Source: Paraspadella gotoi (taxonomy: Eukaryota; Animalia; Chaetognatha). From it: 64,000 nucleotides of DNA. The translations under genes and the position numbers were made by a program. This document shows positions 7,670-61,914 of this stretch, piece after piece (position 1 is the first letter of the stretch; each line of letters begins with the position of its first letter). Below the pieces are notes generated by a model that worked only from the letters and a program-made list of their open reading frames with translations, searched no databases and was not told the origin of the DNA. The stretch lies in contig CM119265.1 of assembly GCA_051294375.1 (NCBI GenBank), positions 14,794,963 through 14,858,962 of the forward strand. The letters run 5' to 3'.

Positions 7670-8107
7670 CGTGAGCGTTTTAGCTTAGTCTAATTCCATA
7701 AAATATAAGAAAGTTCGATGTCACAAAAGCGAGGTTTATTTTCAATTTCACATCAGCAAGAATAATAGGAGAAGTCAAAATTGCTCTTTCTTTTGTGAGC
7801 CTAGAAACTAGAATGTCTCACTCAAACAAAGTTTCTCTACTCTACTACAGTATTTGGTCCTTACCCCACCAAGTCCGGCCTTGTTCCATTGGCCCTTTTG
7901 CCAACCTCCCCAATCCTCTTCTTCCTTCCAATTGGCCCATGGCCTTTATTGCAGTCATAGAGTTTGGGTGAGGTCTTTGTTGTCCTGGTGAGGCGGGCCT
8001 CGGTTTCTGCTGGCTTGTGGTTCCGCCGAGAGTGGAGAGAGAGAGGGAGAGAGATGTAGGGGAGAGATGGCAGCTGGCTGCTGCATGCTCCTCGTGTTAC
8101 GTTTATG
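7670..8107 (-). repeat. 3' LTR
   Basis: Matches 18005-18446; immediately preceded on minus by PPT GGAGCGGGGAGG (8108-8119). Confidence 0.93.
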
Positions 8108-8157
8108 CCTCCCCGCTCCAGTCGGCGAAGACGGCGGGTTTATCCCGCCTTGCTGGC

Positions 8158-9997
8158 CTAGTTTGTTCCTGCGATGAAAGCATCAATTCGTTTATTGCCC
8201 CTCCGCTCCTCGGATTGCCGTCGCGCATGATAGTTGCAGCAGCAGAAGCAGAAGCAAGGTCCGATGGTGAGGAGAACTGCAGCTAGCGCGATGAGGGGGC
8301 GATCGTGTGAAAGTTGGTCCACCATTTTGTAGGCGGGAATCGCCAAAAATGGATTTGAAAAGCGAGGCTGGTGATCCGCGCGTGATTTCCCCCACGCGTT
8401 CGTTGAACTCTTGTGCTTCCCTGTATTTCCACGTGCATGTCCATGAACATGGCGACTCGTCGTAGAGGTCGATTTCTGTGGTCACGTGTCTTTTCTTAGT
8501 ACGAGGTTGATAGGGTCGAGTACTTCTTAAAAGGGCGTCGTCCTTGCGTCACGTAACCTTGGCCGATTTCGTAGATTGGTGGCGGGTCCATGGGGTTTCG
8601 TAGACGTGCTTACGACTGTTGGAAAATCCGTGGCGGAATGCTGCTCGACCCTGAAGCTATTGGTAGATCTTGCCACATTCTTTGTTTTTCTCTTAGGGCG
8701 AGGTCTTCTTGCAGTCTGCCGTGACGAGTACTCGCCCCTGAGGACCGCGATTTTTCCTCGGTCGACGAACGTTGTGGCGGCCGGCGATCTGTGCGCTTGC
8801 ATGGCGGCTGCGCGCGCTTCTTTGGCTCGGGTGACGCACAATTCGTGCCGCAGTGCATCCGTGAGTCGATTTAGGTTCCGTTGGTTTCTCTCGGCCAGTT
8901 TTGACGCTTCCTCTTTTAGCGCCTGCATGGCCGAGTCGTCTCTCTTTAGTCCCGCTGGGGTCGTCGCTGCGATGTAGAAGTGTGGCGATGTGGTTTTGCG
9001 GGCTAAGAAATCGCATCCTTTTATTCTCTCGGTTTCGCCCGTAAATCTGAGGACGAAAGAGATGTTTGCCTTTCCTCCGCAGATCTCGTTGCATCGCTGT
9101 AGTTGTGCGGGGCTTGCCTTTGCATAAATGGCGGCGCATTTTTTCCAGCAATTTCCGGCGAAATTTGCTTTGTCGGGATCTTTGCATTCGGGGATGGTCT
9201 TGTCCTTGCATCCGCCAAGTGTCGTCATTACGTCGACCTCGGTGATGGATCGGATGATGCCGTCTTTGGTCATGAACACGGCTCCTTCGAAAGCAATTAC
9301 CGCTCGACATTTTGGGTCAGTCCATGCGAGGACGCCTCCGGGAAAATGACAGCTTTGTTTCGCTGTGCTGCATCTTCCAGTTTTTGAGCGGATTTCGTCT
9401 GCGACTCTAATTTTGCGTTGATACAACGTTAGGTTTGAGACTAATTTTGCGTTTTCCGACTCGTAGGTGTGATCATGGAAACGAAACTTTTCTCCAGTGC
9501 AGTAGCCATCTGCGTCGTTGGTTCCGATGTGGTGGGTTATGATGTTTGTGCCGTCTCGTCCTTCCATTTCGATGGGAACAAGGATGCCAGTTTTGTCGCT
9601 TACCCTGATTGGTAGGCTTTGTAACTTGACTTTTTTTCCTTCGTGGAGATCTAGGCACGTTTCTCGCGGGAGTGAGAAGTGATCCACCACGTCGATGTTG
9701 GGATATGGGATATTCCATCGTCCGCAGATCTTTCCGGTGGCTACGATGGTTAGATCACAGCCTTTTGCGTTATGCTGCTCGTCATCAGGGATGAAAAGGA
9801 GACGCGTCCGGCCGTAATCTTCCTCTTTTTTTCCATCTTGTTCGCACGCGGCTTCGTTCAGCGTTGTCGCGGCGTGATTTTCAGTGGCGTTACAGTCAAA
9901 TACGTTTACTCGTCTTCCTAATGTGCTTTCGATGATCTCATCTTGAGTTAGTTGATTCGTTATTTTTGCTATTTCACAAACGTAGAGCATGGAGATA
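8158..9997 (-). CDS. env: env-like class III fusion glycoprotein (chuvirus G / herpesvirus gB-like), frameshifted in this assembly
   Basis: Cys pattern VFDC...AAC, GCDL...ICG, ETCLDLH, GYCTG, C...GVLAW...C, GCDFLARKTTSPHFYI, HELC, AVLRGE; C-terminal hydrophobic segment LIALAAVLLTIGPCFCFCCC; start hidden by an N gap. Confidence 0.75.
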
Positions 9998-10345
9998 NNN
10001 NNNNNNNNNNNNNNNNTTTTTTTTTTTTTTTTTTGTTTCGAGCTTCGATCGATCCTTTGTTTTCGAGTGAATGATTTCTTGTTCATGGGCCTCTCTCCTC
10101 TGATTTCTCGTCGTTCGTTTTGTCGTCGTCGCTTCCCGGTTTTTCTCTTTTTCTCGTTCTCTCGCTTGTTCTGCCTCTCCTCTCTCTCTTCCTTTGGTAC
10201 GAGGGGAAAGGCGACGACGATGATGACGACGACGATGGTCATATTTGGATTTTCGATGATGATTTCTATTTTACTTGCTAAGACTAATTGTTTATTTATT
10301 TACACTATTGCCTTTTTTCTTTTTTTTTTGTCGGAGCTTCGCCTG

Positions 10346-13300
10346 TTAGGTTCTGAACGTTGGCGAGTCTCCGCCTGTTGCCTTCAGTCTCCGCCTGTGG
10401 TAGATGAGGCGTTGTCCGGCGATTTCGATGACAAAATGATTTCCTTTTACCTCGATGACTTGATGAGGGCCCGTATAAATGGATTTTACTTTGTTTACTG
10501 CCGGGGCTGCGCCTGTTCGGACTAGGTCGCGCCTGACGTAGACTTGATCGCCTGTTTTTATCTTTTTTGGGTCTCTGAATCGATTTACGCGTTTTGCTGT
10601 TCTGTTTATTTTTATCCGTTGTTCGGCGATCTTTCTCTGCGCGTTTTCTTGTTTGTCAGCCCGTAGCTTTGCATAGTCGGCCAGGCACTCGTAAGTTGCC
10701 TCGTCTGGCAATTCAACTATCCTTGGCCTGTTTCCGAATTGGATCTCGTGCGGGCTCATGTCCGTTTTCCAGCCCGTGATTGGGGTTGAGTTGAGCATTA
10801 GTAGCATATGCGGTAACTCTTTTAACCAGGCGCTCGGGTCGTCATCCAGGGCCTTTCTTAGCGCCTGTCTTATCCGGCCTATGTCTCTTTCGGCTCTGTT
10901 GCTGTTCTTTCTAGAGACTAAGGTTCTTCTGCCACTCATGTTGAGTAGATCGAGTATGCTTTTCATCTCTTCGCCATTGAGTGACGTTGNNNNNNNNNNA
11001 TTTATTTCTAAGTAGCTTCCGTGCATTTGAAAAATATTTTTATCCAGGGCTGCGATTATGTGCGATGCATCTGCTCGACGGATTGGTAGCGCCCAGGTGT
11101 AGGCTGAGGCGTTATCGGATGCTACTACGACGTGGCTGATGCCTCCACTTGGGGGGAGGTGCATGACGTCTATGCACAATGATTCCCATGGCGTGATTGC
11201 TATCGTTGGCGTGGGATCCGTCTCATTGTGGTGCATTTCATCGGTTGTCCGTCTGCATAAGTCGCAGTTTAGTACTACATTTGCACAAGTGCGTACCATT
11301 TGCGGCGCCGCGACGTATTGGGAGACGAGGTATGCTGACCTGTCTCGTCCGGGGTGGCCGAGCTTTTTGTGGATCTTTTCGACAACTTCCTCCAGATTTT
11401 TTTCTGGGACGATGTATCTCGTGGATCGAATGTTATCCTTGTATCCGATGATGCAGAGGATTCCCTCCTTCGTGATGTGGAGGTCGTCAGTGTTTTTCAT
11501 AATGAAAACTTGTGTTGGCGTGAGAGCTTTCCTTTGTGCTGACGCAAGGTGCCTATGAAGGCCATCGCATCCATGATTTTCATATATTATTTTTGCGGAT
11601 TTGATGTCTTCATCTTCGTTTTGCCATTTTTTTATGTCTTCCCTGAGCGGGAGTAGCTGTTGGTTTGGCTGGTGTGGTGAGTTTTCTTCCTCTTCCAGGT
11701 CAATCGCGTCAACTTCGATGGACGCTCCCGTGGCAGAGTCTGGCGTCACTTCTGTTCTGTTTCTTACATCTTCGTCTCTCGCGCGTCTGTGCCTATCGGT
11801 GGTGAGTGTGGCTCTGCTCGGGCCTGGGCCTGGGCTTTGGTTTGTCGCTCTTGGTGGCTGGGCCGTTCTGGCGTTGTCCATGGTTCTTTCTGGTGACGCT
11901 GGTGGTGCGGCTTCTGGTGCGATTCTCGGCGATCTAGGCGAGCTGGGGGTTGATATCGGAGTTGGTGATCTTTCTACGTACGGGATGGTTGTTGGTGATG
12001 ATGGCGGCGTTGACGCTGGAGTTATTTGTGGTGGCGCGTTAGCGCCACTTCCAGGTTCAATTGTTTCTGAGTTTGGCGGTGCTGCCGACCTTTCTTCCGA
12101 GCTTGTTTCTGCAGGCGGCGCCTGTGCTCGTTTTGGTTTGTTTGGATCGGCCGCAAAGATGCAGTGGATGACGTCTGTGTCTGGGGGTGGGTCTCTTGTT
12201 CTTCGGCCGTTGCGCAGGCGGTGCCAAGCGGTCCCTCAGTGGTTTATTTGCTTCTGGTCCGTAGCGATATTGTGTAATTCCATCGCTGATTGTGTCTCTT
12301 GTTAATACTTTTATGTTCTTTTTTTCTTCCATGGTTGCTGCTCTTGTTATTCTCAGTAGTGCCGGTGTGTCGCTGATTAGCGAGGCTTGTCCCGTTGTTG
12401 TTCTAAAGATTTTTATTTCACGTTGGTTTCTTTTTCCATATACTTTTTCAAATTTGCATCCTGTTGGCGTAGTAGAGTCTTCATCGAGTATTTTTATGCA
12501 GAGGCCCGTCATGTCGGCCAGCATTTCTAGTTCGGGGTGCCCGAGAGTCCAATCTTTTGCTGAGATTGTTCTGATGTAGGTGTCGATGTCTTTTGTTTTT
12601 GGATTTCCATAGAGCTTGCGGATATTTTCTTTTTTGTTGTCGAAATCTGATCTAACGTATTTAAAAAATTTGTCTGAATGCTTTTTCGTCTATTTCTAGT
12701 GCGGCGGCAGCGATGCTCAGCGTTGGTGCGCCTCCGACTCGTAAGTCAAGGTGTCCTGGCCATGNNNNNNNNNNGATTGGGTCTTCACAGAAACCTGGGT
12801 TGTATTCTCCGTCGACGTCGAAACCCGCGGGCAGGAATGGAGTGTCGAGTGGGGTGATCTGCCCTTGGTCTGTGAATCTGGTAAGAAAATCCGCAGGATT
12901 GTCTTCGCTTTTTACTAGTATAACCTCGGTTGGGTGACACTCCTGTTTTATCTCGGTAATCCATCGTAGTACATTCGTTGGTAGTAATTGCTGTCGGTCG
13001 TGTTGCAGATCCATTACTCTTTTGAAGTATTGAGAGTCTGTGACCAACGTGACTCTTCTCCCACAGGTGTAGCCTTTGAATTTTCTGGTCATCATATTAA
13101 AGGCTAAGGTTTCAAGGATATTTATGTGCTTAATCCTGTATTCTTCCGGGAAGGTTTTTGAGTGGAAGCACAGCGGATATTCTATCCCGTTTGCTGTGGC
13201 TGTTATGAGGCCTCCCATGGCGCTAGTGCTTGCGTCCGCGTNNNNNNNNNNTTCGCCATTTTTGATTTTTGCGTCGTTCAAAAAGTTTAATCCTGGCGTA

Positions 13301-15385
13301 TTCTTTATTTCTGCTACTAGAGTTTCTAACGCTGCTCGATGTTTTTCTTCGAATTTGAAGCTGCTTTTGTCAACTAAGGTCAGGGCATGGAGCGGTTGTG
13401 CCAGATAAGAGAAACGGTGGGTGAAGCAGCGGTAATAGTTTAGTGAGGCTAAAAGCGCGCGGAGGTCTTTTTGTGTTTTTACTTCCTTCAGTTTCACCTC
13501 AGCTTGTTCTAGCTTCTCTTTCTGGGGTTTGAGCTTATCCTGTGATATGCTGAAGCCTAAAATCTTGATGTCGTCCTTGCGTAGTAGGACGCTTTTTGTC
13601 CATTTGAGGACGACATTTTCGCGTCGGCAGATTTCGAGGAACTCTTTGAGTCGTTCCGCCATTTCCTCTGGCGTTCTTGCTGTCAGGATCAGATCGTCGA
13701 CGTAAATGAGAAAGCTTTTAACGTCGCGTCCGAGATCAGCAAAGATCTCGTCAAGGATGGCTTGGANNNNNNNNNNNNNNNNNNCGCCTCCCATTGGCAG
13801 CTTGTTCATTTGCCAGTTGTGTCCAGCGCCCGCGAAGGCGGTGACTGGTTTGCATCTATCCGACAGGTTGACTTGATGAAAACAAGCGAGAATGTCGACA
13901 GAGCATTGTAGCTCGTGGGGTTTGTATTCCTCGAGTATTGATGCAATCGTTTGAGGTTCTGTTGCAAATGTCGAGATATTGTCATTTACCGCTGATAGGT
14001 CGCATATGAGGCGCCACTGTTTCGCGAAGGTTTCGTCATCCATTTTCTCTTGATCTTTTGCGATGTGGTTTGGCTTTTTGATGAGGAATGCATTTGAGTA
14101 AGCTTCCCCGGAGGTTCTGGAGACGACTCCTGCTTTTTCGTATACCTCTAGGTATCTCTTGAGGGCGGCCTTTTTTACTGGGCCTTGATTTACAAATCGT
14201 GGCTTCGGTAGGTCCTCTGTGGTGAATCCAAGATCTACTTTGTAGTTTAAAAGCCCTCTTTGCAGTCGTTTATCGTTTCTCCAAATACATCGCGAAATTC
14301 CCAGACGGTTTCCCATACTATTGGGGCTTTGTCGANNNNNNNNNNATCTATTTCTTTAAATGGGCGTAAAAATTCCTCTTTTCCCCTGTCATCGTGTTTT
14401 TTTCTTCGTCTGTTTCTGGCTTNNNNNNNNNNTTTGATTTCAGCATCTGTAGGTGTGTGTTTTATTATTTTCGTTGGTGGGATATTTTCCTTCCTTACTC
14501 GTCTTAGTTTGGGACTCTGTCCACTTAGGTCCGCCTGGACTGGGCGGGCTGTGCACTCTGGATCTAAATTTAGTTCTATCGTTGCCTCTTCTGTAACGAC
14601 CAGCCTTGCCTGTCCCCATTCGCCTGGTTCGCCTGGTAGTTCCACGCCTGTTTTTAAATGTTCTCCGGCGATTGTGCAAGCGGTCTCCCCGTCTGTTGAT
14701 TGTAGCATCCATTTTGCTTCCGCTAACGATTTCCAATACGTCTTTGCTGCTCTTACTAGCGTTTTATTATTTTCAGTCTTTTCGGCGTAGAGTGGGATGA
14801 TNNNNNNNNNNTCAACGCATTGTCTTGCCAACCACCTTGCAGCTTTTAATGCTGACTGTTTGTCTTTGAACAGGTGGGTGATCGGCTTGCCGGCCATGTG
14901 CGCTACTTGGAGGCCTTGCTTTTCAGCTGGTGTGACTATCCACATTTCTTCCGCAGGTCCCGGGTCGGTCGTTGCCGTTCCTATGATGACGTCCCGGTCA
15001 TCCTCGTCTGGTGATATGAAGAAAGTAGTATCGAGGATCCAGTTTTGAAACATTACTCTCAGGTCTATGCGGTCGCGGATTGTAACAGTGCCGTTTCCGG
15101 TGGTTACGCGTAATGGTTGTCCTGAGTAAACTTTGCTTGCCATTGACCATTCATCGACAAATTTTCGAGGTATCGTGTTTATCGATGCCCCTGTGTCGTA
15201 GAGGCAGCTTGCTGGGGCTCCGCTAATTACTGCGGGGATGTAGCTGTTGCTGTTTAGGTTTATCTTCCTCTTAGTGTCATCCCTTGGTCGCGGTTTACCT
15301 TCGAGGCGAACTGTCGGGATGACGGTTCGGCTTTTGGTAGTGGGGGCGGTTCCATCTCGCCTTTTCTTTCTTCTGGCACCATAAC
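10346..15385 (-). CDS. pol: pol polyprotein: protease, reverse transcriptase, RNase H, OTU-like linker, integrase (split by gaps and indels)
   Basis: CLYDTGAS (~15185-15208), WRLICDL, LPMG, YVDD, ADAS, VTDS, NPADFLTR, HKKLGHPG..CDLC, CIDVMHLP, NRAERD, YTGPHQV; PR-RT-RH-IN order of Metaviridae. Confidence 0.95.
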
Positions 15386-17767
15386 TTCAGGTGTGAAAGT
15401 TTCTGGTTCGTGACATTGTATTTCAACTTTTCTTACTGTTGCTTGATGCATTGATTCGCCTCTGGTGTCGCTAATGATTGAATAGGTTGGGTTGTATATC
15501 ATTTTTCGGCATTTTACACTAGTTTGGATTAAGTTCGGCCTTAGTTTATTTGTTTGAGATTTTGTCTTTTGTTTTTTCTTTGGTGTCGGTGGCATTTCTA
15601 ATGGGAGCGTTTGCTCTTCACAGATGTCGCTGTTCGGTCCATTGGATTCCGGCGTTGACTTTTGTTTTCTTATTTGCCCTTTTTCATCGTTTCCCTTTTT
15701 CTCTGATTTTTTGCATAACTTTTTGCAAATCTTTAGCCTTTTTATAAATGCCTTCTTCTCGGCTAGCGCCCAGTTCTTCCAGGGTTCAAGGCTTTCTTTT
15801 ACAATGTTTAAGGCAAGACATTTCTTTTCGTTTTCGGCTAAAGGGCTGAAAAGTCTGTGCAGACGGACTGCTGCCGTTTTCCCAGTGAACTTTAGTGCTG
15901 CTTTTGGCACAGTTTCTCAGAGACTCTGTTTCTTTTACAGGCGCGGACTCCGTCGCCATCTGTTGGATGCATTTTGCTGCGGTCTGTGCTAACTCCGCTG
16001 CTTTCTTTCTTTCCTTAGAGGTACCTCTGTCTGTTTTCCTCGTTTCTATGGAATTGATATTGTACTTTTCATGGAATTTTATTTCATCACTGCAAACGCT
16101 TGTGTTATCATTGTCAACAATAACAAAATCTCTACGTCTTGTATCATATTTATTGAATCTAGGCTTTCCGCGGTAGGCCTTTTCTTTCCAACGGTTTTCG
16201 TCTCTTGTATCGCGGCGTTCGCGGCCGCGGTAATCTCGGGGTTNNNNNNNNNNNNNNNNTCGGTCGTCCTTCCTCTCGTCCTTGTCCTCCTTGTCCTTTA
16301 TCAATTTTGTCAGTTTCTCCAGTAGTTCTCGAGAGTTGTTTGCTTCCTGGAGCATGGTTCCTTGATAAAGGGCGTTCGCACTCTCTGCTGGGTTTTTGTC
16401 CGTAAGACCTTTTTGCAGTAAGGAATCGGTGAGGACCTGGCGATCGTTGTCCTTGACAGAGTTTATAAATCGTCTGCCTTTCGCTTCTTTTCCATGCGTC
16501 TCCAGCCAGCCNNNNNNNNNNCATTCGATTCTCCTTCCTAGCTCCTTCTTTCTGCCGCTTTCGATGTATGTTCTAAATTCCATGACTTCTCGGGCAATTC
16601 CTGGAGCATATGGGCTTAGTGCTTTCGTTAGCAGGCGGGCTGTGTGGCGTGGTACTGCGCCTCGGTCCTCCGNNNNNNNNNNNNNNNNNNNNCGGTATAT
16701 GGCGTTGACGAGTCCTAGCCCATACTCGGAATGTATCTCTGGGTCCACTTTCACCTCGATCTGGTCCGCGATCTCTGAAGCGCTGATCGAGGTTGTCTCG
16801 AAGACCTCGCATAATCCTTTGTAGAGGCTGCCTTCGACGGGATCAATGAAGCAGCTGGCTTCATAGTCCCTGGTGAAAAGGGCCTTTAGTTGCTCGTCGA
16901 TGATGCGGATGTCTATATCGCATCCGCGGAGAGATTGGTAGATTCCCCGTAGAAAGTCTGTTGGCTTTTCGTCCTCACGGCGTCGTTCGATTTTCACGGA
17001 ACCAGTTCGGGCGGCCATTGGTTCCATGAAAACTGCCGCCGCTGCGGCGCTCCTGGTCGAGTCTNNNNNNNNNNTAGATCTCTTGCCGTGTCCCTACTTG
17101 GGTTGCGTTCTGTTTTTCGGCAAGTCTCTCGTATCCCTGTCGGCCTCTCGGCGTTTGCTCCTTCCTGCAACATCGTTTTGATTTCGGCGATGTCAGTTCG
17201 GGCGCGGATGTTGTCCCTACTCATGGTGTTGACGGCGTTTGTGAGTTGNNNNNNNNNNATTCTGAGGTGTCTCATTTCTTCGCTCATTTGAATTGTGCTT
17301 TTCCTGTTCGCGTTGATGAGGCGCAGTATTTCACTGATTCCTTTTCCATGGTCGCCCTTCTTNNNNNNNNNNACTCTGCGGAGGTTGTCGCTCAAGTCGA
17401 GGTAGTGCAGGTTTTGGACGCCATNNNNNNNNNNTACTGCCGTTTCGCCGTTTATCTCCATTGAGCTGGGCATGGTGCCACCGACGGCTCCTCCTTCGGT
17501 GTCGGAGGCTACGTGGTCGTCCATTGTTAGGCGGCCCATGCTGCTCGCGATTTCGTCGAGGTTTCCGGTATTTGCGCCGGCGGTCCAGCTGGCGATGACG
17601 GCGGGTGCGTGCGTGGTCAGGCCGGTTGTTGGGTCCAGGTAGCAGCCTGTTATTCCGCCGCGTTGATCTTTGGCCGGGATTTGGGCTTTGTCGTTCGTTG
17701 GGGTGCCGATTGGGGCGGTGGGGTAGATCCCACTGCCTTCTGCGTTTTTTTCGTTTCTTGACGCCAT
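15260..17767 (-). CDS. gag: gag-like ORF1 (three overlapping ORF pieces, probably one long ORF)
   Basis: Lies between PBS and protease; coiled-coil-like, helical and basic segments; no clear CCHC knuckle. Confidence 0.7.
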
Positions 17768-17994
17768 TTGGGTGACTTTCCTAGCGATCTCGAACAAAGA
17801 TTTCGATTTCTTTGTTGGCTCAATTTTGCTGGTTTTAGTGAGTCCTCGTTTTCTTTTGCGTGTCGCGTTTCCGCTATCGAATGTTTTCGTTATTTTTTGT
17901 ATGGTAGCNNNNNNNNNNGCAACGTGGGGCGATTTCGATTTTCGATAAAAGTTTTTCTTTATTCGATTTTCGAAGAATTCTTTCGTAATCTTTT

Positions 17995-18004
17995 GCTGTC
18001 ACCA
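17995..18004 (-). promoter_or_regulatory. primer-binding site TGGTGACAGC
   Basis: TGG directly abutting the end of the 5' LTR. Confidence 0.85.
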
Positions 18005-18446
18005 CGTGAGCGTTCTGGCTTAGTCTAATCTCCGCGAAAATATAAGAAAGTTCGATGTACACAAAAGCGAGGTTTATTTTCAAATTAATCATCAGCAAGA
18101 ATATAGAGGAAGTCAAAATTGCTCTTTCTTTTGGAGCCTAGAAACTAGAATGGATCTCACACAAAGTTCTCTCTACCTTCTACCTCAGATGTTTGATCCT
18201 TAGCCCCACCAAGTCCCGGCCTTGTTCCATTGGCCCTTTTGCCAACCTCCCCAATCCTCTTCTTCCTTCCAATTGGCCCATGGCCTTTATTGCAGTCATA
18301 GAGTTTGGGTGAGGTCTTTGTTGGTCCTGGTGAGGCGGGCCTCGGTTTCTGCTGGCTTGCTTGGTTCCCGCCGAGAGTGAGAGAGAGAGGAGAGAGATGT
18401 AGGGGGAGGTGCAGCTGGCTGCTGCATGCTCCTCGTTACGTTTATG
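18005..18446 (-). repeat. 5' LTR
   Basis: Direct repeat of 7670-8107; AATAAA on minus at ~18073-18078. Confidence 0.93.
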
Positions 18447-18829: not shown

Positions 18830-18897
18830 CTGACTGACAGATCAATAAAGTGAATTATAGAGCCGGAATCTGCAATAAGCAGATCCGGCTAAAAAAA
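18830..18897 (-). mobile_element. HINE/DINE-1-like terminal fragment
   Basis: aaagtgaattatagagccggaatctgc..gcagatccggctaaaaaaa matches the family terminus. Confidence 0.75.
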
Positions 18898-19202
18898 TTT
18901 AAAAGGTAAAAAACAAAAGAATTCTAGTTGACTTTGAGATAAAACAGGCGTCCACGAGAAGGCCTTGAGGGCACCAAAAGGACGGGCTCAAATCATCACT
19001 TAAATTAAATTACTAAAGGTAGTTTCATGAAAAAAAAATTAATCGATACTCTCGGAAAAAAACTGCCAAAAATGAAGGTTAACTTTAAGTAAAGTGAAGA
19101 AGAATATATTTATACCGGGAGTTCTAGCTCTTTTCGGAAAAAGTTTAGGTTATGGCAACAGCCGGGTTGCCTGTGATGCCCATTGGGATGGGGCATCTCA
19201 CT

Positions 19203-19283
19203 GTTGGCTTTGGGGGCTTCCGACCCTCAGTGACGCCTCCAGTCACTGGCGCGGTTACCCTAGGACGGTCTCGCTTTGCCAAT
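19203..19283 (-). ncRNA. twister ribozyme, P5 type (3' LTR)
   Basis: TTGGC-AAA-GCGA-GACCG-TCCTAGGG-TAA-CCGC-GC-CAGTGAC..GTCACTG-A-GG-GTCGGAAGCC-CC-CAAA-GCCAA; T1 CGG:CCG, T2 GC:GC. Confidence 0.82.
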
Positions 19284-19688
19284 GCAGAGGGAAGTCGTTA
19301 GGACTGTGGATGGAACACTACGCCTGGGATGGTGTGTTCCCACTCTGAGCCAATGGATTTGGCTGACGGTTGGCGGACGTGAGGCGGTGTGAATATACCG
19401 CCACAGGATCCCCGGGCCAAGACATCACTCAGGTTCCTCAAGCCTGAGAGGTGTTTGACAAGACTGTTACCATAGTGGGAGAGGGAGAGAGCGTGAGTTG
19501 TGGGGGCATAGGCGTTTGTTGTAGCGTACCCCAGGGGCATAGGCGTTTGTCATAGCGTACCCGAAATCGTAGGGCATAGGCGTTTGTCGTAGCGTACCCT
19601 GAGAAGGTTGCGTGTTCGATAGTAGGGCTCACCACTTATGGCAACAGCCGGGTTGCCTGTGATGCCCATTGGGATGGGGCATCTCACT

Positions 19689-19769
19689 GTTGGCTTTGGG
19701 GGCTTCCAACCCTCAGTGACGCCTCCAGTCACTGGCGCGGTTACCCGAGGACGGTCTCGCTTTGCCAAC
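19689..19769 (-). ncRNA. twister ribozyme, P5 type (5' LTR)
   Basis: Same fold; L4 GTTGGAAGCC gives a U-G wobble in T1; P5 GTTGGC:GCCAAC. Confidence 0.8.
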
Positions 19770-19922
19770 GCAGAGGGAAGTCGTTAGGACTGTGGATGGA
19801 ACACTATGCCTGGGATGGTGTGTTCCCCCTCTGAGCCAATGGATTTGGCTGACGGATGGTGGACGTGAGGCGGTGTGAATATACCGCGACAAGGTACTTA
19901 AATCTCAAGAGCGCTTTGAGAT

Positions 19923-20892
19923 AAAACAAGTTTGAGCAAACTATGTCGGATCTGCCCACGATCATTAGCGGTAATTAATAATTAATACAAACTATATAAA
20001 CTAAAATAATAATTCAATTAATAAATTAATTAATTTGATCCAAAATGTTTGTTTTTAGGTTTTTTCGGCACTGACCACGACAAAAGCAATGACGACGATG
20101 ATGGCGACGACGATAATAATTCCGATAACGATTGACTTGATTGATTGGTTAAATAATTAATTAATTTATAAATAAATTGATTTATTTATTTAATAATTAA
20201 TTAATAGATAACTAAATAAATTGATTGATTGAATAATTATTTGCTTGATTAATGACCGATAAATTAATCATTTATTAATTAATTGACTAATTGATTAATT
20301 AACTGATTAATTATTTGATTAATTAATACATCTTGCATTTACATTTAATATAAAAAGAAAAAGAAGCATAATCATAATCAATTAGTGAAAAAGGTTTTTT
20401 TTTCCATTTAAACTCATTTCCACTCAGATGATTCCATCGAAACTTGATCTCCAGCTTAATCACACACTTTCCTACCCACATACAAAATTTCAAGTCCATC
20501 GCCCCATCCACTCATGAGTAATTGACGTTCAAATAGTGAAATAGATTTTTTGTTTTTTCCATTTAAACTCATTTCACTGGCACGATTCCATCGAAACTTC
20601 ATATCCAGCTCAATCACACACTTCTCTATCCACATACAGAATTTCATTCCAATCCATTCATCCAATCACGAGCAATTGGAGTTTTTTGCTAAGGTGGAAC
20701 GGACGGACAGATGGACGGATGGATGGATGGACGGACAGACGGACATCGTTTTTTTTTGTATAATATATTATAATTTGATGTTTTGACTTGATATAAGTGA
20801 ATGCCCGACAAGATTGAGGGGGCGGACCGATGGACCGACAAAGTGAATAATAGAGTTGGGATCTGCTGATAAGCAGATCCGACTAAAAAAAA
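19923..20892 (-). mobile_element. HINE/DINE-1-like non-autonomous Helentron derivative
   Basis: Minus strand: T run, subterminal IR GTCGGATCTGC with adjacent palindrome, GTCC microsatellite, distal GCAGATCCGAC, stem-loop AGTTTG-CT-CAAACT, TGTTTT end. Confidence 0.85.
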
Positions 20893-21591: not shown

Positions 21592-21699
21592 TAACCGCGC
21601 TAGAGGTATGAGGTGCTGCTGAGGGTACGAAGCCCGCAACGCCAACAGGTGATATGCCCCACCCAGCTTGGAATCACAGGCAACCCAGATGTTGCCATA
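21592..21699 (+). mobile_element. 3' half of a diverged family-2 TRIM LTR
   Basis: TAACCGCGC...CTGAGGGTACGAAGCCC...ATCACAGGCAACCC...TGTTGCCATA aligns to the family-2 LTR 3' half. Confidence 0.8.
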
Positions 21700-21896: not shown

Positions 21897-23022
21897 AAAC
21901 AAGTTTGAGCAATGTTGGATCTTCCCAGGATAATTAAGCGGTAAACAGCTAAATAAATAAACAAATAAATATTAAATAAATACTATAGTAGAAATAATTA
22001 CAAATTAAGTACAAATAAATTTTTCAACTATTATTTTTTTTTCAACTTGCATACTTTTTTTCAACTCTCATCATTTTTTTCAACTCACATCATTTTTTTC
22101 ACTTCGCATCATTTTTTTCAACTCGCATCATTTTTTTCAACTTGCATCATTTTTTAACTTGTATCTTTTTTTTCAACTCGCATCATTTTTTTCAACTTGC
22201 ACCATTTTTTCAACTCGCATCATTTTTTTTCAACTTGCATCATTTTTTTCAAATTGCATCATTTTTTTACTTAATTACTTAATTTATTAATTAATTAAAT
22301 AATTAATTAAAACATTCATGATTGAGCATAAATAATAAAAATACAAGTCAACTTGTCTTTGGTATTTTTCCATGCAAACTCATTTCCACTCCTTGATTCC
22401 TTGATTGATTAATTGACCGATTAGTTAATTATTTATTAATTGACTAACTGATTAACTAACTGATTAATTATTTGATTAATTAATACATCTTGCATTTACA
22501 TTTAATATAAAAAGAAAAAGATGCATAATAAATTAGTAAAATAGGTTTTTTATTTTTTTCATTTAAACCCATTTCCACTCAGACAATTCCATCGAAACTT
22601 GATTTCCAGCTTAATCACACACTTTCCTACCCACATACAAAATTTCAAGTCAATCGCCCCGTCCACTCATGAGTAATTGGCGTTCAAATAGTGAAATAGA
22701 TTTTTTTGTTTTTTCCATTTTAACTCATTTTCACTTGCACGATTCCATCGAAACTTCATATACAGATCAATCACACTCTTCCCTACCCCTCATTCCAATC
22801 CAACCATCCAATCATGAGTAATTGAAGTTTTTTGCTAAGGCGGGACGGATGGAAAGACATACGGACGGACGGACGAACATCATTTTTTTTGCATAATTTA
22901 TCATAATTCGATGTTCTGACATGTAATAAGTTAATGCCCGACAAGATTGAGGGGACGGACCGACGGACTGACAAAGTGAATTATAGAGTCGGGATCTGCT
23001 GATAAGCAGATCCGACTAAAAA
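21897..23022 (-). mobile_element. HINE/DINE-1-like element, second copy, with internal ~20-bp minisatellite (22040-22270)
   Basis: Same termini and ~600 bp shared with 20220-20890. Confidence 0.85.
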
Positions 23023-23318
23023 CTTGCCAATAAAATATTTAGTTTAATTCTAATCTCAATGGCTTCGAAGCAGAAATACAACGGCAAAAGGTATAAATTA
23101 GGTCGTACACAGAGACAAAAGACGCACTAACTGATCAAAAAGTGGCTTAGAGTTGGTCTGTAAGTACTAGCATTAAAACTGATTAAAAACATAATCGTTA
23201 TGATTAGTTATTTTTTTCGAATTGCCCGAAAAATAAGTAAAATAACTTTTTTTTCATTAAAAATATATTAAATCATAACAGTACCTGTATTAACTTTATC
23301 TCATTTACTTCTAAAAAC

Positions 23319-25956
23319 CTTCAGAAAATCCAGGAATTGGTACAGGAATTTGTGTGGAAGATCCTGTATTATTTGAGATCGTTGCTGTAGGACCTGAAGC
23401 ATTGGTAGTCGGTAAAGCTCTTGACTTGTTTGATGCCGAAAATGAAGTTAAAGGTAAACTTCCATTTGTCCAAGTTGTTGTGCTTCTTTGGGTTAAACCA
23501 GAAACTGAATGTGAAGAGAAAGTAACAGTAGTGGATGTATTAGAAATCTTGGTTGTATTTCCCGGGTTTAAAGTGGATTCCATTTGGGATGAAGAAGTTG
23601 ACAATGATGAGGGTAAACTTTCTTTAGCCGCACTGGATGACTTAGAGGGTTGGATCGGTGGTCCAGTTGATATTGCTGGAGAAGTAGTATTGCTAGTCGT
23701 TTTAGTTGTGCTTTCAGCAGATTTTATTGTGGTTGTCTTGTTTGAATGAAAGCTTGATGTAAAGTAGCCTGTGGTACCTGTCTTTGGCGTAATGGAAGTG
23801 TTTGAACTGGTTTTTGTGTAGGTTGAAGTAGGCAACGATGTGTGTAAACTTTCATTAGCTGATCTCGATGACTTAGAGGATTGGGTTAAAGGTACAGTGG
23901 AGATTGTTGTTGGAAAGGAAGTATTACTAGTCGTTTTAGTAGTGCTTTCAGCAGGTTTTTTTGTGGTTGTCTTGTTGGCTAGCCCTGAAGTTTTTGAATG
24001 AGAGCTTGAAGTTGAATTAAATTTGCTTGTCGTACCTGTCATTGATGTGTTGGAAGGTTTGGAAGTGGTTACTGCTTGGGATGAAGATGGAGGCAATGAA
24101 GATGAAACACTTTCATTAGCTGATGTAGATGACTTAGAGGGTTGGGTTAAAGGTACAGTGGAAAATGTTATTGGAAAAGAAGTATTACTAGTCGTTTTAG
24201 TAGTGCTTTCAGCAGGTTTTATTGTGGTTGTCTTGTTGGCTTGCCCTGAAGTTTTTGAATGAGAGCTTGAAGTTGAATTAAATTTGCTTGTAGTACCTGT
24301 CATTGATGTTTTGGAAGGTTTTGAAGTGGTTACTGCTTGGGCGAATGCAATGACATGCGAGGCTAATGAACGCATAAAACACTTTCATTAGCTGATGTAG
24401 ATAACTTAGAGGGTTGGGTTAAAGGTACAGGAGGAGATTGTTGTTGGAAAAGAAGTATTACTAGTCGTTTTAAGTTGTGCTTTCAGCAGGTTTTATGTGG
24501 TCGTCTTGTTACCGAGCCCATAGAAGTTGGAATAGTAATGAGACCTAGTTTAATGTGTGAAATAAATTTGCTTGTAGTACCTGTCATTGATGTTTTGGAA
24601 GGTTTTGAAGTGGTTACTGCTTGGGATGAAGATGGAGGCAATGAAGATGGAACACTTTCATTAGCTGATGTAGATAACTTAGAGGGTTGGGTTAAAGGTA
24701 CAGAGGAGATTGTTGTTGGAAAAGAAGTATTACTAGTCGTTTTAGTTGTGCTTGGCCGACCGATACTTCATCAAACAGTTAGGGGCTTAATAGTACATTT
24801 TCTAATGAAGAAAGAAGCTATATACTTAAGTCGTATTTAGTTTTGTGCTTTCAGCAGAGTTTTTATAGTGGTTCGTCTTGTTAGACCAGAGACCCGCGCG
24901 TGAATCAGTTGGTTAAAGAATGAGAAGCTGAAGAAGATACTCGAAAAAATTTAAATTTGCTTGTAGTACACAAATGAAATATTTCTGGCGAGGTATGCCA
25001 GTATGAAAAGCGTTCTAAATAAGTCTGGGTTTTCCGACCCTCTGCATGGGTGAGACCTGAAGTTGAAGTTTTAGAAGTTGTTTCTATTTGAGTTGAAGAA
25101 GTATGCAATGAAGAGGGAACACTTTTATTAGCTGATCTAGATGACTCAGTGGGTCGGGTTAAAGGCACAGTGGAGATTGTTGTTGGAGATGTAGTGTTAC
25201 TAGTCGTTTTAGTAGTACTTTCAGCAGGTTTTATTGTGGTTGTCTTGTGGGTGAGACCTGAGGTTTTCCATTTAGAGCTTGAAGTAGAAGTAAATTTAGT
25301 TGTACTACCTGTCTTTTCTGTATTGGAGGATTTTGAAGTTATTTCTATTTGGGTTGAAAAAGTAGGCAATGATCCAGATGACTGAGAGGGTTGGGTAAAA
25401 GGTACAGTGGAGATTGTTGTTGGAGATGTAGTGTTACTAGTCGTTTTAGAAGTGCTTTCAGCAGGTTTTATTGTGGTTGTCTTGTTGGTGAGACCTGAGG
25501 TTTTGAATTCAGAGCTTGAAGTAGAAGTAAATTTGCTTGTACTTCCTGTCTTTGCTGTATTGGAAGGTTTTGAAGTTGTTTCTATTTGGGTTGAAGATGG
25601 AGGCAATGCTCTAGATGATTGAGAGGGTTGGGTTAAAAGTACAGTGGAGATTGATGTTGGAGTTGAAGGTTCAGTGAATATTGTTGTTGAAGTAGGATTA
25701 TTGGTAGATTTCATCGTAGTTTTCACTGTTTTTAACGAGGTAATCTTGCTCGCTGGCCTAGAAGTTTGAGAATGAGTGTCTGTGAGTGATAGTGACGAAG
25801 TAGAGTGTTTCAAAGTTGGATCTTCTTTGGTTGAATAAGTAGGTAATGACGAGGATAACAATTTTGAATTAAAAGTTTGGGTTGTATTTAATGTAGTTTT
25901 CTCAGTGGTTTGATTTTCCGAAATTTTCATACGCAGATGACGTTTTTCTTCAGTCT
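23319..25956 (-). CDS. mucin-like PTS exon with ~230-260-bp repeats (frameshifts probably assembly errors)
   Basis: Thr/Ser/Pro-rich ORFs 23311-24375 and 24905-25930 with many NxT/S sequons; acceptor ttctcag| at 25957; phase matches the upstream exon; donor uncertain. Confidence 0.8.
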
Positions 25957-26115
25957 CTGAGAATCAAATGAAAGTAAATTTTATAATAAGGTGATTATTG
26001 TACATGAATAGTTCAAAAAAGCTTTTCTTTTAAGCCTTACTATTTTTAATTATCTAGTTATGTAGTCGGGCATTGCCGAGGTTCACCCGCCTAGAATCAT
26101 GACACTTTCAGTTGT

Positions 26116-26187
26116 GACCCGGTGGCTCATTGAGTAAAGCCATCAGCTCACGACCACTAGGTACCGGGTTCAATCCCACCCGGTACC
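26116..26187 (+). promoter_or_regulatory. tRNA-derived Pol III type-2 promoter in LTR (second copy ~26520-26593)
   Basis: A box TGGCTCATTGAG, B box GGTTCAATCCC at tRNA-like spacing; cloverleaf degenerate, so not a functional tRNA. Confidence 0.75.
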
Positions 26188-26193
26188 TTCCCT

Positions 26194-26272
26194 GCGGGAA
26201 GCGTGAGGACGGCCATAAGCCGCCTTGGGGGCATGGCAAACCCTCAGCCTGGTTCCAAGCCCAGGGACCCGT
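26194..26272 (+). ncRNA. twister ribozyme, P5 type (5' LTR)
   Basis: GCGGG-AA-GCGT-GAGGA-CGGCCA-TAA-GCC-GC-P3-CCTG-GTTCCAAGCC-CAGG-GA-CCCGT; T1 TCC:GGA; P2 short and bulged. Confidence 0.75.
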
Positions 26273-26599
26273 TCCATGGCTGCTAGAGGGGGTTATAGAA
26301 GTTACGGACAGTCATCTTCAGCCCACGTAGCGCCTTATCCACACTGGTGAGCCCATCCTGTCGAGCGTATTCCAACCTTCTGATTCCAGGCCCTTGGTCT
26401 AGCTGAAGATTGCTCCCCTCCCTTCACTGGAAGCAGTGCAGGGTGGGTTACAATCTGGGGGGCATGTAGTCGGGCATTGCCTAGGTTCACCCGCCTAGAA
26501 TCATGACACTTTCAGTAGTGACCCGGTGGCTCATTGAGTAAAGCCATCAGCTCATGACCACTAGGTACCGGGTTCAATCCCAACCCAGGTACCTACCCT

Positions 26600-26679
26600 G
26601 CGGGAAGCGTGAGGACGACCGTAAGCCGCCTTGGGGGCATGGCAAACCCTCAAGCCTGGTTCCAAGCCCAGGGACCCGT
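26600..26679 (+). ncRNA. twister ribozyme, P5 type (3' LTR)
   Basis: Same fold; P1 CGACCG; P3 CTTGGGGG:CCCTCAAG. Confidence 0.75.
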
Positions 26680-27561
26680 TCCATGGCTGCTAGAGGGGGT
26701 TTAGAAGTTACGGACAGTCATCTTTAGCCCACGTAGCGCCTTATCCACAGTTATACACTTATAAATATAAAATAGTATTGAATCTGTTAATTTAATTTGG
26801 TTTGTATGCCAAAAAAATATAAATAATACAGTTATTTCCTGAGTAAGTATGATTCTATAAATCATATTGTTCTGAGACCACATAATGTCAATTTTTTTTT
26901 AAAATTAATAACATCAAAAATTATTTAAATAAATTTGGTTGTAATAGTAAAACTAATGTTGTCATGAGACATGCCATTACACTTTCTTATAATTAAAAAT
27001 ATATTTTGATAAAAATGCTGTTTTTAAATCAAATTAAAACCATTAGTCATTAACATAGATTAGTTTTTTTTAATGTTACCATCTTGATTCTATTTTATTT
27101 TGTAGCTGATATGTGCTATAGTATCATTCTTGATATGAATTAAAATTCTCTTAAAAACAGGTCAATGATTTCTGAATATATTGAGTGGTGCTGATGAGTT
27201 GCATGATTTTCAGTAATAGCAGCCAAATTTACCCCGTATCCATGTAATGCAAAAGATTTATAAACAAATTTATTTTTAGGTGCTTGTAACCCAGATTAAA
27301 CCTAATAATATAGTTAAAGTATACTCATGTGCATAAAAAACGCGCTACTTTATAATATTAAATTCCAAAAGCTTCTTATACTTTTATTCTATTTTTATTT
27401 TAAAAATTATATAAAAAAATTAAAGCTTTTTTCAAAAAAGAATCAATCGGTCAAGTAGTTTAAGAGATGTTTTTTTAAACTTCAGTGTTCAAAAAAAATT
27501 GAATAGTTATATTTTATTTAAAAGCTTCAGAATCATTGACCTGTAATTCCTTTTTTTTAAC

Positions 27562-29950
27562 CTGATCTGGAGGTTGTGGTTATCTCTAGTTTTGTAGAAG
27601 TAGAAGCTTTAGAAGTTGTACTAGTTTTTGATGGTGTGGATGATGTTGTTCCAGAATTTACAGTTTGAGTTGTTCCTTTAGATCCTAAGGTAGTGGTTGT
27701 ATCTGGTTTATTGGAAATTGTAATTGGATAGGTTGTACTCGTCTTTAATGATGTGGATAATGTGGTTCCAGAATAGATAGTTTGAGTTGTTCCATCAGAT
27801 CCTCTGGTTGTAGATATTTTTGGTTTAGTAGAAGTTGTACGAGTGTTTGATGGTGCTGGTGATGTGGTTTCAGAATATACAGTTTGAGTTGTTCCTTCAG
27901 ATCGTGAAGTCGTACTTGTGTTTGATGGTACTGGGGTCGTGGTAGTGGTAGTGGTAGGATTAGTTGTTTCAGAATATACAGTTTGTGTTGTTCCTTTAGA
28001 TCCTGTAGTTGTGGTTACATCTGGGTTAGTGGAAATAGAAATTGAAAAAGTTGGACCAGTGCTTGATGGTGTGAATGACGTACCTCCAGAATGTACAGTT
28101 TGAGTTGTTACATTAGATCCTGTAGTTGTGGTTATAGTGGAAATAGAATTTGGAGAAGTGGTACCAGCATTAGATGATGTGAATGTTGTCGCTTCAGAAT
28201 GTACAGTTTGAGTTGTTACATTAGATCCATGGAGTTGTGGTTATATTTGGGTAGTAGAAAATAGAATTGGAGAAGTTGTACCAGTGTTTGATGGTGTGGA
28301 TGAAGTAGCTCCAGAATGTACAGTTTGAGTTGTTACATTAGATCCTGGAGTTGTGGTTATATTTTGGGTTAGTAGAAATAGAGTTGGAGAAGTTGTACCA
28401 GTGTTTGATGGTGTGGACGTTGTAGCTCCAGAATGAACAGTTTGAGTTGTTACTTAGATCCTGGAGTGGTGGTTGTATTGGGTTAGTATAAATAGAAGTT
28501 GGAGAAGTTGTACAGTGTTTGATGGTGTGGATGATGAGCTCCAGAAAGACAGTTTGAGTTGTTACATTAGATCCTGGAGTTGTGGTTATATTTGGTTAGT
28601 ATAATAGAAGTTGGAAAGTTGTTCCAGTGTTTGATGGTGTGGATGTAGCTCCAGAAAGTACAGTTTGAGTTGTTACATTAGATCCTGGAGTTGTGGTTAT
28701 ATTTGGGTTAGTAGAAATAGAAGTTAGAGAAGTTGTACCAGTGTTTATGGTTGTTGGATGATGTAGCTCCAGAATGTACAGTTTGAGTTGTTACATTGAT
28801 CCTGGAGTTGTAGTTATATTTTGGGTTAGTAGAAATATAAGTTGGAGAAGTTGTACAGTGTTTGATGGAGTGGATGATGTAGCTCCAGAATGTACAGTTT
28901 GAGTTGTTACATTAGATCCTGGAGTTGTGGTTATGTGTTGGTTAGTAGAAATAGAAGTTGGAGAAGTTGTACCAGTGTTTTGATGGTGTGGGATGATGTA
29001 GCTCCAGAATGTACAGTTTGAGTTGTTACATTAGATCCTGGAGTTGTGGTTATATTTGGTTAGTAAGAAATAGAAGTTGGAAAAAGTTGTACCAGTGTGT
29101 TGATGGTGTGGAATGTTTGTAGCTCCCAGAATGTACAGTTTTGAGTTGTTATATTAGATCCTGGAGTTGTTTATATTTGGGTTAGTAGTAATAGAAGTTG
29201 GAGAAGTTGTACCAGTGTTTGATGGTGTGGATGATGTAGTCCCAGAATAAACAGTTTGAGTTGTTACATTAGATCCTGGAGTTGTGGTTATATTTGGGTT
29301 AGTAGAAATAGAAGTTGGAGAAGTTGTACCAGTGTTTGATGGTGTGGATGATGTAGCTCCAGAATGTACAGTTTGAGTTGTTCCATTAAGATCCTGGAGT
29401 TGTGGTTATATTTTGACTTAGAAGAAAAATAAGTTGGAGAAGTTGTACCAGTGTTTGATGGTGTGGATGATGTAGCTCCAGAATAAACAGTTTGAGTTGT
29501 TACATTAGATCCTGGAGTTGTGGTTATATTTGGGTTAGTATAAATAGAAGTTGGAGAACGTTGTTCCAGTGTTTGTTGTTGTGGATGATGTTGCTCCAGA
29601 ATGTACAGTTTGAGTTGTTACATTAGATCCTATAGTTGTGGTTATATTTGGGTTAGTAGAAATAGAAGTTGGAGAAGTTGTACCAGTGTTTGATGGTGTG
29701 GATGAAGTAGCTCCAGAATGAATTGTTATATTAGATCCTGTGGATGTGGTTACAGAACTTAATGTTGTTCCAGTATTTGTAGTTGATCCATTTTTTTTAG
29801 CAATAGTTGGAGTGGTAAACACTGAAGAAGTATTAAATGGAGAGGTTTTAGTTTTTCTGCCAGATGCTGAACTTGTAGTTATATTTGGTTTGGAAGAATT
29901 TCCTGATATTCCTTCTGAAGTGGATGTTAACATTGTTGTCGAAGAGGTAG
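27562..29950 (-). CDS. mucin-like PTS exon with 117-bp (39-aa) tandem repeats
   Basis: Acceptor tttacag| at 29951, donor |gttaaa at 27561; about 13-14 repeats encoding GSNVTTQTVHSGATSSTPSNTGTTSPTSISTNPNITTTP, with indel noise. Confidence 0.8.
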
Positions 29951-30189
29951 CTGTAAATGAAAAATTTAATTTGAAAAACACCATTATTTTTATCATGTCG
30001 ATTAGGAAAATACCTGATGAATCTCTTTTTAAGCCAAAAATTATCAAAATTATTTGCTATTGTTATAAATAATTGTAAGCAAAATGATTGTATAGTGGCT
30101 TGAGTTTGTTAAATTCAGTTGTACGAAATTATCTCAATGTATAGAAAATGTTTATTATTGATGATTATTAAAAACTTCTTTAGCTTCGA

Positions 30190-31769: not shown

Positions 31770-32030
31770 CGCATAATCACACAAAATTTCATTCTAATCC
31801 ATACCTCCAATCACGAGTAATTGGAATTAAATGCTAAGGGGGACGGATGGACGAACGGACGGATGGGCAGATGGATAGAGAGATAGACGGACCTCATTTT
31901 TTTGCACAATTTATCATAATTCAATGTTCTGATATGATAAAAATAATTTACTGACAAGATTTAGGGTGGGACCGACGGACCGACAAAGTGTATTATAGAG
32001 TCAGAATCAGCTATAAGCAGATCCAACTCA
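31770..32030 (-). mobile_element. HINE/DINE-1-like partial copy (another remnant at ~33540-33650)
   Basis: Homology to 20620-20885. Confidence 0.75.
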
Positions 32031-45569: not shown

Positions 45570-45606
<37 letters not shown>

Positions 45607-46432: not shown

Positions 46433-46774
46433 TGTAAGGGAAGGGTTGGGGAAGGGTGGCAAAAAACACGGGTAAGTTAAGTGGGGCGGCGGAAGACTGG
46501 TTCTCAAAGTGCGGCGTCCTGCGGCGGAGGCGAGTTATCAGGTAGGTTCGGAAACTCTTTGCGTTTCTTCTTCAGCACTTTGAAGCAGTCGACTAGGGAC
46601 ATTATGGCTTTCAGCTTTGTGGTGAAATATTCGTTTGTTTTGTGATTCTGCATATCTTGGTGTCGAACGCGTAAAAATGTAAAATTTGTGGTGAACTGAG
46701 TTAAGAAGAAAAATTGAGAAAAGAGAGAAAGAGAGATCCGAGAAAAACATAAAAGATGCAGAGAGAGATTGAGA

Positions 46775-61900: not shown

Positions 61901-61914
61901 CCGGCTTCAGCTCT

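Follow-up and report, generated by a model that had tools for sequence, protein, structure and literature searches.

A 64-kb window of DNA from Paraspadella gotoi (Chaetognatha), located on contig CM119265.1, was analyzed (all coordinates are window positions), and it contained a non-coding terminal-repeat retrotransposon in miniature (TRIM), designated family 2, with a P5-permuted twister ribozyme motif in each of its two long terminal repeats (LTRs). Family 2 was a high-copy protein-free TRIM with CsRn1-type signals, whose transcript would probably be cut by the two putative LTR twisters to a 486-nt unit, closed into a circle, and reverse transcribed. The overall structure of the element was as follows:

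19151-19891, minus strand: full non-coding family 2 TRIM, 741 bp, with borders backed by contigs of other copies
19637-19891, minus strand: 5′ LTR, 255 bp, TGT...ATA
19151-19405, minus strand: 3′ LTR, 255 bp, TGT...ATA
19147-19150, plus strand: left copy of target-site duplication (TSD) AGGT
19892-19895, plus strand: right copy of TSD AGGT
19386-19402, minus strand: 5′ hairpin at LTR start
19498-19599, minus strand: three tandem units of 31-37 nt, each a small hairpin
19406-19416, minus strand: polypurine tract, weak, a run of five purines separated from the LTR by three pyrimidines

Family 2 was read on the minus strand, from 19891 down to 19151; its LTRs, both measuring 255 bp as the original prediction had it, were mismatched at 8 of 255 positions and enclosed an internal region of 231 bp, and no open reading frame (ORF) of at least 130 aa overlapped the element. 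It thus displayed the TRIM hallmarks: less than 1 kb, two LTRs, non-coding, a TSD, and a primer-binding site (PBS). The borders could be fixed because contig loose ends at 19150/19151 and 19891/19892 entered varied AT-rich flanks. The element was present in four sequencing runs of the host; in run X1, 7,448 contigs lay on the 3′ LTR, 1,428 extended past the LTR ends, and the summed depth (which does not equal true copy number) was 1.0-2.1 million for the LTR, 0.34-0.8 million for the internal part, and 261 for the unique flank. On a plain reading, family 2 was an abundant mobile element with thousands of copies. The observed/expected CpG ratio was 0.69 in 19151-19891 versus 1.01 in the whole window, and several low-share variants of family 2 were C-to-T changes at CpG; this depletion and these variants give a hint of element methylation.

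The twister motifs and the unit that they would delimit were located as follows:

19689-19769, minus strand: 5′ LTR twister motif in P5-permuted order, cleavage predicted between 19743 and 19742, T1 with one U-G wobble
19203-19283, minus strand: 3′ LTR twister motif in P5-permuted order, cleavage predicted between 19257 and 19256
19257-19742, minus strand: predicted cut-to-cut monomer, 486 nt, without a run of four U

The motifs were recognized by a descriptor derived from Rfam consensus lines, which required T1 pairing and the P5-permuted order GA, T1 partner, UAA, GCC, and GU-NNN-AAGCC, while P2 to P5 were not demanded. Five matches were obtained on both strands of the 64 kb, every one within LTRs of family 2 or of a comparator TRIM, family 1 (see below), with U(-1) at 19743, 19257, 26216, 26622, and 4113; by chance the descriptor arose in 2 of 20,000 shuffles of the family 2 LTR and in 5 of 20,000 shuffles of the family 1 LTR (both strands). 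The original prediction of a twister in each LTR was borne out, as were its two predicted cut sites, the U(-1) positions 19743 and 19257 giving a monomer of 486 nt. Also in favor of the motif, Rfam at E<=10 returned nothing but a twister model for the 116-nt domain of family 2, and Twister-P5 was among the matches of family 1.

The sequence signature of the twister (U-A cut site, catalytic G and A, GCC, and GU-NNN-AAGCC loop) was present in permuted order. In the 3′ LTR, the catalytic-strand G and A lay at 19270-19269, the L4 loop at 19224-19215, T1 at 19222-19220 / 19268-19266, and T2 at 19250-19249 / 19217-19216. Pairing was complete in T1 (3/3), T2 (2/2), and P3 (6/6), and P5 had 6/6 pairs in the 5′ LTR and 5/6 in the 3′ LTR (A-C mismatch). 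Family 2 was numbered by the usual twister positions. Only four positions of the rice twister, G13, G30, A46, and G48, were intolerant of any single change, while T1 pair swaps were mostly tolerated, C25U was tolerated, P1 was dispensable, and the stems were tolerant, with P1, P2, and P4 robust (PMC5113685). Family 2 kept G13, G30, and A46 and had G48 replaced as part of a swapped T1 pair, and the T1 wobble in the 5′ LTR equaled the tolerated C25U change. The P5-permuted twister motif in each LTR likely self-cleaves.

Family 1 was represented in the window by three features:

26061-26749, plus strand: family 1 TRIM with LTRs 26061-26343 and 26465-26749, GTTA duplication, and 406-nt monomer
3990-4264, minus strand: family 1 solo LTR, flanked by a separate 4-bp duplication (TATT) and still matching the full twister descriptor
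47800-48043: decayed family 1 LTR

Family 1 had the same PBS as family 2 (at 26345), predicted twister cuts between 26216 and 26217 and between 26622 and 26623, and six G adjoining its 3′ LTR. The LTRs of the two families had little primary similarity, in agreement with the original prediction (the local score was reached by 299 of 500 shuffles and the global score by 29 of 500), and the equal order of parts claimed for them was recovered, the motifs being collinear in the global alignment. T1 was CGG:CCG in the 3′ LTR as well as in most copies, TGG:CCG in the 5′ LTR, and TCC:GGA in family 1 (3/3 copies matched by the descriptor), while the Rfam consensus lines read CCC and GgG; all three T1 pairs differed on both sides between family 1 and family 2, at positions set by invariant neighbors. 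The T1 swap named in the original prediction was right, with the correction that one pair in the 5′ LTR is a U-G wobble. P2, P3, P4, and P5 also differed between the families yet paired; the claim that all of them still pair was too broad for P2 and P4, which carried A-C, and for P5 of the 3′ LTR, and these non-T1 helices were drawn to pair by the analyst, so that they do not amount to an unbiased test.

Among the copies of family 2, 30 variants were found at 28 places. For the counts by class, 20 letters at each LTR end, to which the mapping is blind, were left out; the share of a variant was its larger minor share in any run, and shares were taken from contig depths, in which a few master lineages may dominate. 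Positions were divided into constrained (paired or catalytic), loop/linker, upstream, and downstream: (i) at a share of at least 2%, 5/66, 5/15, 16/102, and 0/32 varied, respectively; (ii) at 5% or more, 0/66, 2/15, 12/102, and 0/32; and (iii) at 10% or more, zero, two, seven, and zero. Constrained positions were depleted of variants relative to loops at 2, 5, and 10% (p=0.016, 0.03, and 0.03), while their comparison with the 134 positions outside gave p=0.46, 0.01, and 0.098, uncorrected. None of the 14 catalytic or invariant core positions varied at 2% or more, and of five paired-position variants, four kept or restored the pair and one broke the loop-closing pair of P3 (2.4%, one run). The avoidance of paired and catalytic positions by common variants supports, without proving, selection on the fold.

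The signals for priming and integration pointed to the CsRn1 clade, for which PMC2582038 gives a PBS TGGTGAG/CCCCGT/A for tRNA-Trp, a 4-bp TSD, and ends TGT...ATA or TGT...AAA. Family 2 had all three (tRNA-Trp PBS, 4-bp TSD, and TGT...ATA ends), and its priming region comprised two blocks:

19625-19634, minus strand: PBS TGGTGAGCCC, CsRn1 type, tRNA-Trp 3′ end, 9/10 letters equal to the bee tRNA-Trp complement
19602-19619, minus strand: second tRNA-Trp-complementary block (T-arm to anticodon-stem side), starting five letters beyond the PBS

The first ten PBS letters were common to families 1 and 2. Within the second block, 16 letters matched a human tRNA-Trp probe exactly (PMC5737633; bioRxiv 10.1101/400127) and 17 letters a nematode tRNA-Trp fragment (PMC6903752), and family 1 carried 12 letters of this block; the PBS 10-mer and the second block together therefore constituted a two-part primer site. 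Both this site and the CsRn1-type signals had escaped the original prediction. No tRNA-Trp gene was found in viral contigs (0/1 and 0/16 loci), and the tRNA-Trp match rests on published sequences. A 16-pair inverted match was additionally observed between the internal region (19463-19478) and the LTR 3′ end plus PBS start (19632-19648), and it would mask the primer site in the modeled monomer fold.

Promoter-like boxes were found in the 5′ part of each LTR:

19308-19352, minus strand: weak motifs of the 3′ LTR resembling A and B boxes (equivalents in the 5′ LTR at 19794-19838)

The A-to-B distance was 36 nt in family 2 and 45 nt in family 1. Family 1 combined this tRNA-like spacing with TGGCT and a perfect B box (GGTTC), while in family 2 TRGCY was present, YGG was absent from the majority, and the B box was worn (TGTTC), which departs from the box definition of the TRIM Helenus. 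The quoted A box TGGCTCAGAGTGG did occur in the 3′ LTR but was private there, about 99% of the depth having G at 19342. No Rfam tRNA match was obtained at E<=10, and a four-U run was absent from both monomers. A putative RNA polymerase III (Pol III) promoter in the LTR is weakly supported; Cassandra provides a precedent for Pol III transcription, which has also been suggested for Helenus (PMC10886601). The coverage of run X9, only guessed to be RNA, was rejected as evidence, an unrelated neighboring repeat being equally deep.

A replication cycle can be proposed from these components. Transcription would start in the 5′ part of the LTR, possibly via Pol III, and the twisters in both LTRs would cleave the transcript into the 486-nt unit, which a host RNA ligase would likely close into a circle. 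Ligation is invoked because the cut-to-cut monomer, being without a terminal repeat, is unusable for ordinary strand transfer; joining of the ends would restore one whole LTR between the internal region and the PBS, and a reverse transcriptase (RT), likely primed by tRNA-Trp and provided by an autonomous Ty3/gypsy helper, would run from the PBS through the ligated junction as in the plant retrozyme model. An alternative helix (P5 5′ strand plus GCC/P3 strand) would keep the circle from re-cutting, and a CsRn1-type integrase would insert the copy and make the 4-bp duplications. The ligated circle copied from the PBS has been put forward as the plant retrozyme template (PMC7761336), cutting, circle formation, and Ty3/gypsy help have plant precedents (PMC4918200, PMC7761336), and an RtcB-type ligase joins ends of this kind in animal retrozymes (PMC7229834). 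Because of the P5 permutation, the cut divides the ribozyme in two, an arrangement that seems to fit a circle route better than 5′ trimming.

Fold predictions, which leave pseudoknots unscored, placed the alternative helix between the P5 5′ strand and the GCC-P3 strand in the whole LTR with a probability of 0.5-0.97, and the same helix also closed the predicted monomer; in these models it may be an off-state protecting a circle or a sign of a poor ribozyme. The circular monomer was predicted to pair at 56% in family 2 (z -2.0; 1/60 shuffles) and at 68% in family 1 (z -1.0).

A number of results weigh against a ribozyme-bounded circular intermediate. With respect to the motif, the whole window gave no Rfam match at the gathering cut-off, and the gathering scores of the Rfam twister models (RF03160, RF02684) were not reached: 15.2/67.2 bits for family 2 (the sole match of its 116-nt domain at E<=10 was a partial twister-P1, E 0.66) and 15.5/37.6 bits for family 1 (Twister-P5, second among 5 matches). 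Three stems of family 2 were weak (P2 with 3 pairs plus A-C, P4 with 2 pairs plus A-C, and P1 with about 2 pairs), and both twisters of the copy 19151-19891 bore private changes. In the isolated domain, the twister secondary structure lay about 10 kcal/mol above the best fold, and the helix probabilities, 0.64-0.99 for P3 and P5, were at most 0.17 for P2 and P4 and 0 for P1. The predicted monomer pairing stayed below the >70% stated for retrozyme RNAs.

As for selection, the original prediction had named in advance, as a refuting outcome, a ribozyme region conserved no better than the rest of the LTR, and the whole twister region was indeed not better conserved (p=1.0, 0.086, and 0.49 at 2, 5, and 10%); the constrained-versus-outside comparison was significant at one of three thresholds (5%), and no variant fell on the 32 downstream positions either. 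The proposed cross-family covariation contains a real T1 swap, but it is a single comparison, the homology of the two families is statistically not shown, and no third family was found in viral contigs or metagenome loci. Formal covariation is unattainable with two families, and MAFFT did not bring families 1 and 2 into register. As for the element and its surroundings, the best A/B-box pairs had 2 mismatches and were equaled by 70-77 of 1000 shuffles per LTR tested, so that the boxes alone were not significant; the polypurine tract beside the 3′ LTR was weak; neither the window nor 51 metagenome loci yielded an autonomous helper partner; and the loose ends listed showed no accumulation of copies that stop at the cut.

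The misfit between predicted folds and twister structure, together with the ordinary conservation of the twister region as a whole, would be expected of a passenger or fossil ribozyme, with the LTR derived from a tRNA-headed short interspersed nuclear element (SINE) insertion carrying an RTE-type twister, movement by the usual strand transfer across a long R region, and a twister that is misfolded or slow. SINE insertion is proposed as the origin of Pol III TRIMs (PMC10886601), and twisters lie at RTE/Perere-3 5′ ends (PMC8501958, PMC7761336); however, two dissimilar families keep all core bases with different but paired T1, P3, P4, and P5, the common variants fall in loops, and Perere-3 variants are reported to lack or relax P1 at the 5′ end (PMC8501958), whereas here the T1 partner is upstream of the cut with none downstream. 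A passenger origin is considered unlikely. That the loop is no twister at all, being a look-alike of a tRNA T-arm/B box from a second tRNA-derived unit with the rest due to chance, is very improbable: the upstream GA, the exact T1 partner, UAA, and GCC are rightly spaced in both families, the family 2 loop has CGG unlike a T-loop, and the descriptor was found in only 2 (family 2) and 5 (family 1) of 20,000 shuffles each, with no Rfam tRNA match, against which stand the resemblance of the family 1 loop and stem to a T-arm, the low Rfam scores, and several 'aagcc' places that are B boxes in the published Helenus LTRs seen.

An active twister could also act without any circle, by trimming or limiting the transcript (freeing the RNA from read-through, or cutting partially), with an uncut or dimeric linear template. 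The modest self-pairing of the monomer and the predicted on/off alternative helix suit such a role, and so does an old fragment at 21592-21699 that resembles a strong-stop copy of linear 5′-cut RNA. This course is nonetheless improbable, as the second cut in the identical 3′ LTR would remove the terminal redundancy and make full copies with TSDs hard to produce, and RtcB-type ligases close ends of this type in animal retrozymes (PMC7229834). A cut, circularized, and reverse-transcribed 486-nt unit remained the preferred reading.

Two further remnants of family 2 were present in the window:

21592-21699, plus strand: old family 2 fragment with 78% identity, bounded by the predicted cut site and the 3′ end of the LTR
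38911-39158, plus strand: decayed family 2 LTR with about 80% identity, in which a short tandem repeat replaces the UAA/P1 part of the twister

The former, a single case, resembles a PBS-primed copy halted at the cut 5′ end; its L4 loop had ACG at the T1 place and its P3 differed, so that it perhaps represents a further subfamily. The cut-site loss in the latter is as expected if selection acts at transposition, not on resident copies. Outside the window, the family 2 twister pattern had no match in viral contigs, and no third family was found in viral contigs or metagenome loci. The two-part PBS pattern was met at 2 viral and 51 metagenome loci, and 0/53 had the twister descriptor or similarity to either family; they were rejected as relatives, three being prokaryote-type tRNA-Lys genes and the others looking like chance. 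A search of viral contigs for natural twisters of equal T1 gave six loci, which were likewise rejected, none having stems or Rfam support.

The window also contained other repeats. A large Ty3/gypsy-type element (5692-18446, minus strand) had 440-bp LTRs (7670-8107 / 18005-18446; 91% alike), encoded protease, RT, RNase H, and integrase in frames broken by assembly gaps, and included an ORF with a weak Pfam Monjiviricetes_fusion match (E 2e-5, below cut-off); it was inserted into another element, in which a related integrase ORF lay at 5692-7455, and the closest matches of its RT were environmental proteins, the named ones being distant. As a helper for family 2, the element at 7670-18446 was set aside, its LTR ends and PBS being different. 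No Pfam family was found in 11 non-retroelement ORFs of the window. An abundant AT-rich repeat (18847-18904, 19915-19978, 20241-20889, 22401-23022, and 31778-32028) had a GC hairpin near one end plus a matching short inverted motif and a summed depth equal to that of the TRIM; it resembles DINE-1/Helentron-type elements in these features. Ser/Thr-rich mucin-like repeats (23311-30056, minus strand; units of 117 nt and 234-261 nt) held family 1 between two blocks. There were also a 1.4-kb direct repeat pair (45081-46433 / 61911-63360; 81% alike), an imperfect palindrome of 290 bp (32183-32469), and a tandem array with a 19-nt unit (22019-22291).

In the literature seen, in part as excerpts (including PMC4918200, PMC7761336, PMC8501958, PMC9695139, PMC7229834, PMC10886601, PMC6154101, and bioRxiv 2022.07.19.500677; Repbase and most subscription papers lay outside the search), no twister within LTRs was found. 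Published LTR retrozymes are of plants and carry hammerheads, animal ones are without LTR or PBS, and twisters are described in RTE/Perere-3 and viroid-like circles, as far as these texts go; the P5 permutation accounts for 1% of annotated twisters (PMC6154101). Similar motifs may sit unseen in repeat libraries because the Rfam cut-offs miss these twisters.

Compared to Helenus/TRIMp3 (PMC10886601), family 2 shared a TRIM size of <1 kb, tRNA-type A/B boxes in the LTR, and a 4-bp TSD in animals, and the Gypsy-type PBS of Helenus includes tRNA-Trp in wasps; in the available text, however, no ribozyme is reported for Helenus, 0/49 'aagcc' places of the supplement were twister-like by eye (line breaks may hide motifs), and in its examined LTRs the boxes come late, close to the 3′ end and ahead of a T-rich stretch, whereas family 2 has degenerate boxes in the 5′ half, with the ribozyme motif after them. 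The CsRn1 clade (PwRn1, AgCR; PMC2582038) shared PBS, 4-bp TSD, and TGT...ATA ends, but its members are autonomous and also defined by Gag/Pol, while family 2 had no ORF and is likened to them by cis signals alone. Schistosoma mansoni Perere-3/RTE twisters (PMC8501958) likewise lie in a retroelement with weak or absent P1; those elements are non-LTR with a single 5′-end ribozyme, whereas family 2 had two per element, P5-permuted and within LTRs. Animal non-LTR retrozymes (PMC7229834) likewise consist of non-coding sequence, a few hundred nt long and delimited by ribozymes, and circularize via a tRNA ligase; they are stated to differ in having a type I hammerhead, no LTR, PBS, or polypurine tract, and GC <50%.

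The closest counterparts were plant LTR retrozymes (PMC4918200, PMC7761336), with which family 2 shared the non-coding TRIM-like structure, one ribozyme motif per LTR, 4-bp TSD, PBS, high GC, Ty3/gypsy-type ends, and a cut-to-cut monomer, here a predicted one. Judged by sequence, family 2 was non-autonomous with a self-cleaving-type motif in both LTRs and a 4-bp TSD, as LTR retrozymes are, but it lacked the type III hammerhead and tRNA-Met PBS of their definition (no Rfam hammerhead match was found in the window) and had instead a twister, tRNA-Trp/CsRn1 signals, and an animal host; its monomer, with a circle that is only predicted, was 486 nt (406 nt in family 1) against 600-1000 nt. On balance, family 2 seems to work like an LTR retrozyme without being a member as defined. 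That families 1 and 2 extend LTR retrozymes beyond plants for the first time, and for the first time with a twister, is about as likely as not: they would represent an old, diversified, Pol III-driven, CsRn1-dependent animal TRIM lineage that reached the circular-RNA route independently, with a P5 twister that its own cleavage would inactivate, ligation would restore, and an alternative helix would keep silent. Published retrozymes are split between plant LTR/type III hammerhead and animal non-LTR/type I hammerhead elements, and the only role so far described for eukaryotic twisters is to trim the 5′ ends of non-LTR elements; if the proposal is true, intermediates bounded by ribozymes, and probably circular, evolved anew with a different ribozyme and a different helper lineage, and the rare P5 permutation gains a function, with a short construct for tests.
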